Part shown: positions 61,478 to 62,710 of the stretch, in pieces
How positions within the stretch are numbered: position 1 is the first letter of the stretch
Layout of the letters: the number at the start of each line of letters is the position of its first letter
Source of the DNA: Candidatus Sericytochromatia bacterium
Lineage (GTDB): Bacteria; Cyanobacteriota; Sericytochromatia; S15B-MN24; VGJW01
Assembly: GCA_035285595.1 (NCBI GenBank)
Contig: JAYKGV010000004.1
Coordinates: 3,327 to 67,326, forward strand
Length of the DNA stretch: 64,000 nucleotides
Direction of reading: 5' to 3'
Notes under the pieces: generated by a model
What the model was told of the DNA's origin: nothing
Databases searched by the model: none
The model's input: only the letters and a program-made list of their open reading frames with translations
Position numbers and translations under genes: made by a program

Positions 61478-62710
61478 GAGGGTGTTCTCCTTCTGGCGCC
61501 TTGTGGGCGCACCAAGGGACGGGAGGGTTCTTGCCCAGGCATGGGAGGCTTGCGTCCCCCTTCCCGCGCGCCCCTGCACGCCCTTGTCACGGGCAGGAGG
61601 CGGAGATGCAGCCGTGCCGACGGCCTGTCCCCCCGGATCATGCCGGGGGGCTTCGCCGGCTGGGCGGACCCGAGCCGGTGCGATGCGTGCGAGGTGTCGA
61701 GAGGTCTGGAGTACCCGCGGAATCTCTGTCCTGCGGGACGATGACCGGGCAGCCGAAATCGCCGGGATGACGTCGTTGAAGGTTCGTACGGGAACTCCCA
61801 TACGACTGGCCGTACGACGGATCGCCCGGGTGGTCCGGACAAGGCGGCGTCGCGGCCCCTCGGGGAGTCCGGCGAAGGAGCTCTCGTCCGCAAGTTGCAA
61901 GACGGGATGGGGCCGGCGGACAGCCGCGCGGACCACGACTCCGGCAACAGCCATGTCGCACGCGGCCTGATAACGGGCCAGCTTGGCCTCGAGTGCACGG
62001 GCCGACCGATGGGCACCCTTGCGATGCATCGAGGCAATCACCCGTCGCAAGCGGCCAGCCTTGCCCGCTTCGCGTCGGCCGCCGGCGCCCAGCAGGGTGT
62101 GTCCGCGGGCGTCCGTGACCATGGCGCGGTGATGCAGCCCAAGGGCTACCCCCACAGAGGTGCGAGGCTGGAGTCGGCAGCGGACCCGCAGCCACCACCT
62201 GCCCTTGCGGCGACCGATACGGGCCTCGAGCCAGCGCGCACGCTCCGTAAGGCGCAAGAACTGGACCATCTCGAAGTCTTGCGGGAGTCGTGCCTGTATA
62301 GGCAAATCACGGCCCAGGAGCGGCACGATCACGCGCAGCGTCCCATCCGGATGAGGCGCGAGGCTCCATGTGCCTGGAGCAAAGACAGCCCAAGTCCAGC
62401 CCTCGCTGCCAGTGTCCACGGACCCTGCAGCAAGCGCACGTGTCTGCGCCTCGACAACCTCGAGGAGGCTGCTGCGGAAAGGTTCAGGCAAGGCCTCGAG
62501 GCCACTTCGGGCACCGCCCAGCATCATGCGTGCCCGCCTCAAGCCTTCGTCTCGGACGGTCTCGGCCAGGTTCATCCAGCCAAGCGGGGCGAGGGCCTCG
62601 CGCCACAGGGAAGCAAGGCGCTCTGTCTGTTCGCGCACAAGACGCAGCCCTTGTCGCTGGGCCCGGTCGAGGGGCCTCAGCTCGAGGTCGAAGGTGCGTA
62701 GGGTGCTCAT
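60938..62710 (-). CDS. Nuclease-dead TnpB/Cas12f-like protein (TldR-like); TnpB-like part ~62710-61670, no stop before the downstream ORF
   Basis: RTFDLELRP; ARIGRRKGRWWLRV (WED); VGVALGLHHRAMVTD (RuvC-I, D>A); basic bridge helix; LQLADES (RuvC-II, E>A); GVPVRTFND; PRVLQTSRHL (RuvC-III degenerate). Confidence 0.75.
   Translation of the reverse strand: MSTLRTFDLELRPLDRAQRQGLRLVREQTERLASLWREALAPLGWMNLAETVRDEGLRRARMMLGGARSGLEALPEPFRSSLLEVVEAQTRALAAGSVDTGSEGWTWAVFAPGTWSLAPHPDGTLRVIVPLLGRDLPIQARLPQDFEMVQFLRLTERARWLEARIGRRKGRWWLRVRCRLQPRTSVGVALGLHHRAMVTDARGHTLLGAGGRREAGKAGRLRRVIASMHRKGAHRSARALEAKLARYQAACDMAVAGVVVRAAVRRPHPVLQLADESSFAGLPEGPRRRLVRTTRAIRRTASRMGVPVRTFNDVIPAISAARSSSRRTEIPRVLQTSRHLARIAPARVRPAGEAPRHDPGGQAVGTAASPPPARDKGVQGRAGRGTQASHAWARTLPSLGAPTRRQKENTLMTTIVKDLGETTQKLVVHSLDNLKTYVEKTSQELGAVNLVGATRHVLDTAIDGAKNVVKATETLSDDPFTTLKEVADRSVEATREVLNTIAEEGRKADLVGVSTRIAMEGLNTLRSEVDYSLETGKALVNRLQTSATPTEPVVTRPPQVTRVEIEHEKPTRSSAKSTEKVPAAEKSANA
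61629..61654 (-). mobile_element. IS200/IS605 right-end-like hairpin (candidate omega-RNA 3' scaffold)
   Basis: Minus strand GAAG-CCCCCCGG-CATGAT-CCGGGGGG just after the TnpB-like RuvC-III region. Confidence 0.6.

Follow-up and report, generated by a model that had tools for sequence, protein, structure and literature searches.

What is left for an RNA-guided nuclease to do once its catalytic residues are gone and its reading frame has stayed open? This question is raised by a gene on the minus strand of a 64,000-nt stretch of DNA from Candidatus Sericytochromatia bacterium (assembly GCA_035285595.1, contig JAYKGV010000004.1, positions 3,327–67,326 of the forward strand), which we call the window throughout and to which all coordinates refer. 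The product of the gene is very likely a protein of the TnpB/Cas12f fold. It has lost the nuclease site, and its frame continues through a linker, which carries a structured RNA, into a conserved helical protein. The reading developed here, on which our confidence is evenly balanced, sees the descendant of an immobilised TnpB-omegaRNA locus whose protein has lost its nuclease, still binds RNA and is tied in cis to the gene downstream. An earlier interpretation of the same DNA, made from its letters and translations and called here the sequence-only reading, had proposed a domesticated, RNA-guided regulator.

A TnpB/Cas12f fold that has lost its active site

The open frame begins at 62776 and ends with a stop at 60938–60940. 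Counted from the conserved start ATG 62710, where the opening residues MSTLRTFDLELRP are common to the orthologs, it encodes 590 amino acids. The frame, its main parts and the positions of the former nuclease site are as follows.

60941..62710, minus strand: whole frame, with TnpB-like part, linker and conserved helical C part; gene callers give a single 590-residue protein (P0002)
61685..62710, minus strand: TnpB/Cas12f-like part, residues 1–342 (WED/REC and RuvC fold), assigned by AlphaFold2 (AF2), Foldseek and the family profile against the PDB
61478..61684, minus strand: linker of 207 nt, translated, holding the structured RNA
60941..61477, minus strand: C part, a helical protein of 179 residues (SLDNL ... 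VTRVEIE) of undefined family, also the C-terminal portion of the fusion frame
62144..62146, minus strand: RuvC-I position, Ala189 (GCC) in VGVALG; Asp in 14/14 other aligned copies
61889..61891, minus strand: RuvC-II position, Ala274 (GCG) in LQLADES, followed by Asp275 and Glu276; Glu in 14/14 other aligned copies
61718..61774, minus strand: remnant of the zinc finger (TNB), with a 12-codon deletion, no Cys and neutral drift
61712..61714, minus strand: RuvC-III position, Val333 (GTA) in PR-VLQTSRHLA; Asp in 14/14 other aligned copies

Neither Pfam nor NCBIfam models match the first 411 residues of the protein, so that the TnpB label rests on orthologs, profile and fold. A profile built from 15 orthologs and compared with the PDB finds OsCas12f (9nzq, 4.8e-26), AsCas12f (7wju, 2.9e-19) and ISDra2 TnpB (0.004), and in the alignment the RuvC-I, RuvC-II, zinc-finger and RuvC-III columns of the family meet the same motifs of 9nzq (GVDMG, IQMEDL, NADFNASQN). 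An AF2 model of the window protein, computed from an 18-row alignment (A3) that adds four database proteins, is confident for residues 1–312, with a predicted local distance difference test score (pLDDT) of about 80–90 and block means mostly of 75–94; residues 313–416 are disordered. When this model was compared with the PDB by Foldseek, the top matches were only Cas12f, TnpB, Cas12k and dCas12f chains, with AsCas12f 8j1j at 3.3e-11 and a probability of 1.00. Further matches include OsCas12f 9nzq, ISFba1 and ISDra2 TnpB, 8iaz, 8exa, 8h1j and the dCas12f structures 9n9c and 9n9m. The TM-scores are low (0.2–0.3), as is expected because the query is a multi-domain protein of 590 residues. The TnpB-like identity that had been read from the letters has thus found its match in profile as well as in structure.

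How completely has the nuclease been lost? The other 14 of the 15 aligned copies carry GVDLG, (K/H/R)(F/L/I)E, CxxC...CxC and (H)(A/P)(D/R)DLxAxRN. In the window copy all three acidic positions are replaced, and next to the RuvC-III position the A and N of DLxAxRN have become T and H. Residues 313–331 contain no Cys pairs, and over the zinc-finger segment the window is identical to its sisters L002 and L004 at 5/29 and 7/29 positions, against 21/29 between the two sisters themselves. In a leave-one-out comparison of the 15-sequence alignment the window copy stands alone at 11 columns on which the other 14 agree, and each of the other copies does so at zero to two. The 11 columns comprise the Asp of RuvC-I, the Glu of RuvC-II, four Cys and two Gly from the zinc finger, and D, A and N in RuvC-III. 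The 30 family-invariant columns, among them columns of WED/REC, the RuvC fold and the linker, are all unchanged in the window.

Copies from other sources agree with this picture. Three metagenome copies retain VGVDLG, KFE, CxxC...CxC and HADLNAARN, and in alignment A3 the D189, E274, D333 and Cys columns are at least 90% conserved, with at most one row departing. By Pfam search PF07282, the zinc ribbon of TnpB/Cas12f, is absent both from the window protein and from the window's genome; the sister protein P0003 carries it. The sequence-only reading had seen alanines at RuvC-I (62146–62144) and RuvC-II (61891–61889), a vanished zinc finger and PRVLQTSRHL in place of DRDxNAARNI, and all of this holds up against the 14 orthologs with their D and E and with Asp opposite Val333. 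The two alanines themselves are not conserved among the orthologs, which keep D-E-D, and the dead state is seen in one species only. No close relative of the dead form is found among 5.8 billion clustered proteins or in JGI (Joint Genome Institute) metagenome contigs. The pattern of substitutions goes far beyond chance. Nor is it an assembly slip, since contigs from a second DNA run (X4) are letter-identical at 61513–61925, 61927–62479 and 62508–62794, with short gaps between contigs.

One open frame and the RNA within it

Where does the gene end? The sequence-only reading had placed its end near 61660, which is wrong: no stop precedes 60938–60940, and the frame enters the 179-residue module. 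Across copies the linker between the two parts has six lengths (195–231 nt), each a multiple of three. In-frame stops are absent from the linker in 15/15 copies, and the other two frames hold zero to four. Among the families of the order, here labelled f1 to f4, f2 contributes a remnant in which most of TnpB has been deleted and which still forms one open frame with the C part. As the linker frame stays open and its lengths remain multiples of three, even in this remnant, there is good, though indirect, evidence that ribosomes read through and that the fusion protein exists. Orthologous frames measure 524–692 amino acids, and the full-length copies are all open. In the window, the GC content of the TnpB part by codon position (.74/.57/.73) resembles that of other window genes.

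The linker itself follows other rules. Within the genus, the synonymous divergence (dS) of its 69 codons is.05–.25, against.49–1.26 in the TnpB part, and its ratio of nonsynonymous to synonymous divergence (dN/dS) reaches.6–2.4, with the same tendency in 6/7 further pairs. Its GC content by codon position (.77/.71/.68) lacks codon periodicity. The low dS and the missing codon pattern indicate that the constraint acts on the nucleotides and not on the amino acids. Two elements of the linker are listed here.

61513..61678, minus strand: putative omegaRNA-like structured RNA, with hairpin P1, an 8-bp P2, invariant P3, P4, P4b, P5 and a pseudoknot AAGGG:CCCUU, ending in CCCUUG (61518–61513)
61610..61625, minus strand: invariant 16-mer core GGCCG..GGCACGGCU (P3 and flank), occurring once per TnpB-bearing locus

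The 16-mer core is invariant even among copies whose proteins are only about 25% identical. The window's genome contains it exactly once, and it is absent from the stand-alone loci of family f4 that are described below and from 12 other loci compared. A six-helix structure around it was evaluated on an alignment of 20 sequences, in which 95.9% of the cells are paired, as opposed to 78% with shuffled partners and 35–47% with partners slid by one to three columns. Two-sided changes are seen in 18/28 pairs, and the covariation score is.458 vs.133, with 0/500 shuffles attaining the observed score. One of the six helices is the pseudoknot between the invariant AAGGG loop and CCCUU, for which locus L005 shows the compensatory AAGGA:UCCUU. 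A seventh hairpin, P1 (10–12 bp), is formed in each full-length copy from lineage-specific sequence. The G-U pairs are consistent with the sense strand.

Does the RNA also persist where the nuclease is dead? Polarising changes by parsimony on the protein tree of the 18 fused copies, we count 19 substitutions in the window linker relative to the state common to the three congeners. Six of these affect paired columns, and the pairing is preserved in every case; four of the six make up two full compensatory doubles in P2 (U-A to C-G, A-U to G-C). From position, strand and architecture we infer that the linker RNA is an omegaRNA-like scaffold. A side observation concerns an RNA-library contig from a relative at about 92% identity (X9), in which one nucleotide is missing and one is inserted at 61527/61534, at a distance of 7 nt, so that the frame is restored; this may be an effect of the alignment.

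The conserved C-terminal partner

What, then, is the protein that the frame runs into? The C part comprises about 170–180 residues across copies, from M-(A/T)-(S/T)-(I/L)-V-K-D-L through S-L-D-N-L to V-T-R-V-E-I-E, and is found in 27/27 genomes of the order. It is far more conserved than the TnpB part: between window and congeners the identity is 91–92% vs 66–69%, and its dN/dS (omega) is.07–.18. Its GC content at third codon positions (GC3),.85, marks the upper end of what is seen in the window, which suggests that it is highly expressed.

In family f4 the C part is a stand-alone gene of about 160–200 codons that lacks both the TnpB part and the RNA motif and lies among other neighbours, so that its genomic address differs between TnpB-bearing and TnpB-free families. 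In the f4 loci L034–L042 this gene is accompanied by a riboflavin-type deaminase-like frame and by frames that contain an ILIVSNGPGE motif. At their start (e.g. MASTFKDIADT...) the stand-alone proteins align with an internal Met of the fused forms, and that Met has its own ribosome-binding site.

61475..61492, minus strand: Shine-Dalgarno sequence AAGGAG (61487–61492) and internal ATG (61475–61477); GGAG and ATG invariant in 20/20 aligned copies

The invariant GGAG and ATG at Shine-Dalgarno spacing, together with the alignment of the f4 starts, make it very probable that the short C-part protein is still made separately, next to the fusion.

Searches for relatives of the C part return little. 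Against Pfam, 23 members give only scattered matches below threshold (Phasin_2, ArnB_C, ORF239-like), and the profile compared with the PDB meets a designed helical repeat only. AF2 predicts four long helices at a pLDDT of 48, which is too low for structural comparison. In the protein atlas, unnamed clusters appear at 0.92–0.93 and Phasin_2 at 0.88, and a word-based homolog search lists four unnamed proteins.

An element held at one chromosomal address

The fused gene is not confined to the window, and its distribution tells of an old residence. Its fixed neighbour is transcribed in the opposite direction.

62837..64000, plus strand: anmK, divergent neighbour; the window ends within it

A six-frame search of 41 related genomes (E <= 0.01) gave matches in 16. 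One of these is the genome of the window itself, and another match, of 42 residues in G034, is spurious. The others are three congeners (66–69% identity in the TnpB part), three more genomes of family f1 and eight of f3; 0/8 genomes of f4 matched the window TnpB query. Copies in the two remaining f3 genomes, the truncated f2 remnant and three metagenome contigs came from further searches, a profile scan of metagenomes having yielded these three intact fused copies and one ordinary TnpB. Orthologs at the same site beside anmK are known from at least 17 other genomes or contigs, within one Sericytochromatia order. The proteins of the congeners are labelled 'Candidatus Sericytochromatia bacterium' in the sequence records. 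At 17/19 family loci, an anmK-type motif G(L/I)MSG(T/S)S is found a short way upstream of the TnpB start, on the other strand, so that the locus, its neighbour and, in the full-length copies, its open frame recur together in related genomes.

Is the locus still mobile? The window's genome (2.69 Mb in 68 contigs, 95% complete) has one copy of it. The absence of tnpA that had been noted from the letters extends to the whole genome by Pfam search: no Y1 transposase (PF01797) was found, nor a second TnpB, the profile of free-living TnpBs giving no match. A scan of genome contigs in which P0010, the nearest free TnpB, served as query returned no match. The marks of a mobile IS200/IS605 element, that is TnpA, transposon ends and multiple copies, were not found at this locus, and the marks of an immobilised TnpB are present: no near-identical paralogs, occurrence in several genera and a conserved neighbour.

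In a tree with the 20 nearest free-living TnpBs, taken as representatives from a library of 1.8 billion proteins, the 18 fused copies form one clade with a Shimodaira–Hasegawa-like approximate likelihood-ratio support (SH-aLRT) of 100, and inside it they group by genus and family; the tree is unrooted. Free multi-copy TnpBs of 350–440 amino acids occur in other genomes of the order and phylum, on a branch separate from the fused copies. This pattern fits a history of one ancient insertion followed by vertical descent, with either a gain in the ancestor of f1, f2 and f3 or a loss in f4. As a side observation, the f4 genomes G016 and G022 (e.g. loci L074 and L076), in which the fused locus is missing, hold three to four ordinary free TnpB genes (366–437 amino acids) each, which indicates that mobile TnpBs are active in the same order.

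The orthologs beside anmK keep D-E-D and the zinc finger across the order, and immobilisation must therefore long predate the loss of the nuclease. Domestication, as the sequence-only reading had it, survives in the sense of a locus that is fixed and not decaying; what does not survive is the idea that it came with inactivation, for the locus was domesticated, or at any rate fixed, while its product was still an apparent nuclease. A second, independent nuclease loss, via deletion, is the f2 remnant (locus L031 of genome G008, approximately 1516–2541, minus strand). There, about 160 codons of degenerate TnpB remain, with 'IEVEF' replacing IGVDLG and with the N-terminal half, zinc finger and RuvC-III gone; the RNA core and the C part follow, all in one frame of 342 codons.

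Some features of the surroundings may be added. A sigma-70 promoter scan of 60700–62900 returned 0 sites, and no conserved left-end-like motif was found upstream of the TnpB start. At f3 loci (L008–L013, L015) a conserved gcTATAAT-like -10 box lies 40–130 nt upstream of that start; in the window genus this box is absent, and ATG 62710 is not preceded by a Shine-Dalgarno sequence. A hydrophobic frame of 114 codons (FAWVVFVVVAFNAP...) occupies 60543–60887 on the minus strand, directly after the fusion gene and thus between its C part and tmk.

Selection on the dead copy

If the nuclease is dead, has the rest of the protein been maintained? We used a branch test on four taxa with our own implementation of the codon model of Goldman and Yang (GY94/F3x4). 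Omega is estimated at.06 on the window branch and.08 in the background, values that are imprecise for reasons taken up below and that do not differ significantly (twice the log-likelihood difference, 2dlnL, of.62). An omega of 1 is rejected on the window branch, with a 2dlnL of 88 over 342 codons and of 67 over the 311 codons outside the zinc-finger/RuvC-III region. By the counting method of Nei and Gojobori (NG86), pairs that include the window give an omega of.23–.26, and the rest of the family.12–.41.

The segments of the protein have fared very differently. Over the 21 aligned codons of the zinc-finger segment, dN between window and sisters is.74–1.43 (dS.87–1.4), compared with.11–.19 among the sisters. 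In WED/REC the corresponding values are.21–.25 and.05–.15, and in the RuvC core.31–.33 and.06–.13. Because the zinc-finger segment has drifted freely, with dN close to dS, for the greater part of the window branch, the loss of the nuclease must lie far back along it; what remains of the protein has been conserved, apart from a modest relaxation of the RuvC core. The view that the gene is not decaying has been borne out: purifying selection acts on the window copy, the zinc-finger segment alone is neutral, and the pairing of the linker has been preserved alongside.

Two signs of decay were considered and rejected. The low GC3 of the TnpB part is shared by anmK, tmk and a penicillin-binding-protein (PBP) gene of the same genome, and the long protein branch goes with synonymous change that is equally inflated. 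As a separate observation, pairwise dN and dS of anmK suggest partly different branching, and the lineage-wide compositional shift complicates rate tests.

A possible role in cis

What could an RNA-bound, non-cutting protein do at this address? In IS200/IS605 elements the 'guide' is flanking DNA. The DNA that flanks the scaffold here is of a particular kind.

61493..61512, minus strand: putative guide, the 20 nt after the scaffold end, by analogy with omegaRNA; variable between lineages, just 5' of the Shine-Dalgarno sequence

Across copies, CCCUUG (61518–61513) is followed by 20–35 variable nucleotides and then by the Shine-Dalgarno sequence, so the guide position is the 5' untranslated region (UTR) of the fused or downstream gene. 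In the four genomes of the genus this segment can form a hairpin, GCGCC-CACAA-GGCGC, directly 5' of the Shine-Dalgarno sequence, with its sole change in the loop.

Contigs assembled from RNA libraries touch the same region. An identical contig of 239 nt (X6) spans the junction between linker and C part (61336–61574), and X9 (704 nt), from the ~92% relative, extends over the complete C part and linker as far as 61672, a few bases from the first helix. The C part is covered by X6, X8 and X9 and the TnpB part by none, a coverage gap that is uninformative in itself. As a pattern these contigs are a weak hint in favour of a cis logic.

On this basis the following mechanism can be sketched. The dead protein would still bind the linker RNA and would not cut, and the scaffold would form the 5' leader of the C-part mRNA. 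The footprint of the bound protein on the guide segment could then reach the ribosome-binding site about 22 nt away, and the protein might set the translation or the stability of the C-part message, or sit on the DNA of its own locus. In its fused form it would be tethered to whatever the helical C-part protein assembles on. A role in cis is the most economical one because the scaffold would head the downstream mRNA and the guide segment abuts its Shine-Dalgarno sequence.

Could this hold beyond the window? Tentatively, and with more doubt than belief, we extend the idea to the whole order, where the omegaRNA scaffold would be both a translated linker and the 5' leader of a host gene, and the TnpB fold would serve as an RNA-binding switch or tether in cis. 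In the intact orthologs the RuvC site may serve guide processing and/or the selfish cutting of element-free alleles; guide processing by RuvC is described as an activity of TnpB in passages of bioRxiv 10.1101/2023.11.30.569447.

Weighing the alternatives

Several observations weigh against a nuclease-dead, RNA-bound protein that works in cis. The dead site occurs in 1/18 full-length copies (15 aligned and three from metagenomes), that is in the window species only. Within the window protein the extra dN of the RuvC core is about twofold when set against the N-terminal half. Synonymous sites are near saturation on the window branch, which is long, and the GC3 of this genome is.70–.73 as against.81–.85 in the three congeners, anmK included; since this violates the stationarity that the model assumes, the maximum-likelihood omega is imprecise. 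Purifying selection could also act partly against misfolding of the N-terminal part of an obligatory fusion. As to the RNA, a search of the locus and seven orthologous loci against Rfam gave chance-level matches only, and the covariance model R1, applied to 22 loci of free-living cyanobacterial TnpBs, where it found nothing, and to eight stand-alone C-part loci, gave no match besides one further family member, so that the boundary between scaffold and guide is not set by comparison. The f2 remnant keeps the RNA core next to a TnpB that is no longer intact, and the RNA may accordingly work on its own. Finally, the RNA-library contigs are silent on ends, strand and level, and may stem from DNA contamination.

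Might the TnpB part then be a functionless passenger? The only reason for its frame to stay open, and its product foldable, would be translation in one piece with an important downstream gene, or the supply of promoter and leader to that gene. Such a passenger would explain why the f2 frame remains open and its RNA core survives after most of TnpB has been deleted, and it sits well with a C part that is universal in the order (27/27) and strongly codon-biased as well as with the acceleration of the RuvC core. It does not sit well with the distribution of changes in the window copy: its branch has as low an omega as the nuclease-intact orthologs, 0/30 family-invariant columns have changed, all 11 unique departures fall into nuclease and zinc-finger motifs, and the drift of the zinc finger (dN close to dS) over the same time shows what release from selection looks like, which the rest of the protein does not resemble. 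We regard a mere passenger as unlikely, if still a serious contender.

A second alternative keeps the function and moves the target. As in the TldR proteins, the dead protein with a short guide (9–16 nt) would repress a promoter site elsewhere in the genome that is flanked by a target-adjacent motif (TAM). The change of 3/3 RuvC residues, the loss of the zinc finger with retention of the fold, and the structured RNA downstream are what such a regulator would display. Its target, however, does not appear. Among the 20-nt windows of the 60 nt after the scaffold, none has another match with three or fewer mismatches in the assembled genome. Exact matches to about 75 queried 14-mers end at 14 nt, with matches of 11–14 nt at chance level (about 0.02 expected per 14-mer), and a 9–10-mer seed from the guide start has no match in the 64-kb window. 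In two genomes that are 100% complete and carry intact orthologs, the 20 nt after the scaffold likewise match their own locus only, and there too the 'guide' is the 5' UTR of the next gene. TldR guides as short as 9–11 nt are documented in the passages available of bioRxiv 10.1101/2023.11.30.569447, so that a target in trans could escape these searches. We nevertheless consider a TldR-type regulator quite improbable. The RNA-guided transcription regulator of the sequence-only reading thus stays a hypothesis of which one half has fared well, namely a nuclease-dead protein with a maintained RNA at its 3' end; for the other half no TldR-type target was found, and a role in cis fits the anatomy better.

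That the protein is still a nuclease, its active site rebuilt from Asp275, Glu276 or other residues at shifted positions, is hardly credible: catalytic residues at alternative positions are known in TnpB/Fanzor lineages (bioRxiv 10.1101/2023.11.30.569447, in part) and two acidic residues do directly follow Ala274, but the RuvC-I and RuvC-III positions are both non-acidic, the zinc-finger/TNB segment is deleted or randomised, and the sisters have D275/E276 besides E274, which means that these residues are not new.

Relation to known systems

How does a nuclease-dead, RNA-bound protein acting in cis compare with what has been described? The closest parallels are the fliC_P- and oppF-associated TldRs of Wiegand et al. 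(bioRxiv 10.1101/2023.11.30.569447, cited here for the passages available). The window copy shares with them the TnpB fold, the mutated RuvC triad, the lost C-terminal zinc-finger/RuvC part, a guide-RNA-like scaffold encoded 3' of the gene and the absence of TnpA. It differs in that the dead state characterises a clade there and one species here, where the orthologs at the locus are apparent nucleases. It differs further in its in-frame fusion, in a scaffold that lies inside the frame and in the 5' leader of the next gene, and in that no TAM-flanked target was found. The context is also another one, as TldRs occur with phages or in ABC-transporter operons and the window gene is chromosomal in uncultured Sericytochromatia. 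By its residues, the window copy resembles a TldR as delimited in those passages; an inactivation conserved throughout a clade is not seen. Since the inactivation stands alone in its family and a target has yet to be found, we do not file it as a TldR.

The orthologs resemble a different group, the immobilised TnpB clades of Altae-Tran et al. (2023 PNAS, PMC10691335). Going by its main-text passages, they share a single copy, the lack of near-identical paralogs, vertical descent across genera and a conserved neighbour, and would fall into the 'non-mobile, predicted active' category. The same passages mention no Cyanobacteria and no TnpB that is translationally fused to a partner; tables S1 and S5 could list the clade. 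A nuclease-dead miniature Cas12f/TnpB fold that works through a physically coupled partner is also described for the dCas12f-sigmaE activators (passages of PMC13472631). In that case the partner is a separate sigma factor, with real genomic targets and a 5'-G TAM, in contrast to the covalent fusion found here.

The best profile and fold matches are the IS200/IS605 TnpB-omegaRNA systems (ISDra2, ISFba1) and the dimeric Cas12f proteins (AsCas12f, OsCas12f). As in the former, the putative scaffold is encoded in the sense orientation across the 3' end of the gene, and the guide position is flanking DNA. Unlike them, the locus has no TnpA, no recognised transposon ends, a single copy and no stop, so that the scaffold is translated. 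From canonical TnpB and Cas12f the window copy is set apart by the loss of catalytic site and zinc finger, and its RNA by a lack of similarity to Rfam or to the RNAs of free TnpBs. In the portions consulted of the literature on TldRs, dCas12f-sigmaE and immobilised TnpBs we found neither a fusion of TnpB to a host protein nor an omegaRNA in a frame that continues into another gene, although supplements may list the clade. In the full-text library searched, no paper combines TnpB and Sericytochromatia.

What the locus may mean

Nuclease-dead derivatives of TnpB/Cas12f, such as TldR, dCas12f-sigmaE and Cas12k, each brought a new use of RNA guidance. The window gene naturally suggests itself as a candidate regulator, either RNA-guided or RNA-bound, and the locus around it is of interest in two further respects. 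It shows a TnpB with an intact active site that has been held at one chromosomal address over order-level divergence with no transposase at hand, and it joins TnpB to a host protein in a natural translational fusion, through a stretch that doubles as a conserved structured RNA.

The comparison within the genus, of the window with its sister genomes G001–G003, sets what TnpB does by cutting apart from what it does otherwise. With nuclease and zinc finger dead and the rest of the protein and the RNA still under selection, the window species offers a nuclease-null made by nature, and it would show that a cis role, if true, needs no cutting of DNA. Such a role would extend RNA-guided proteins to the post-transcriptional control of a neighbouring gene. 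Should the cis model be wrong, the locus would still show how a selfish element has entangled itself with a host gene.

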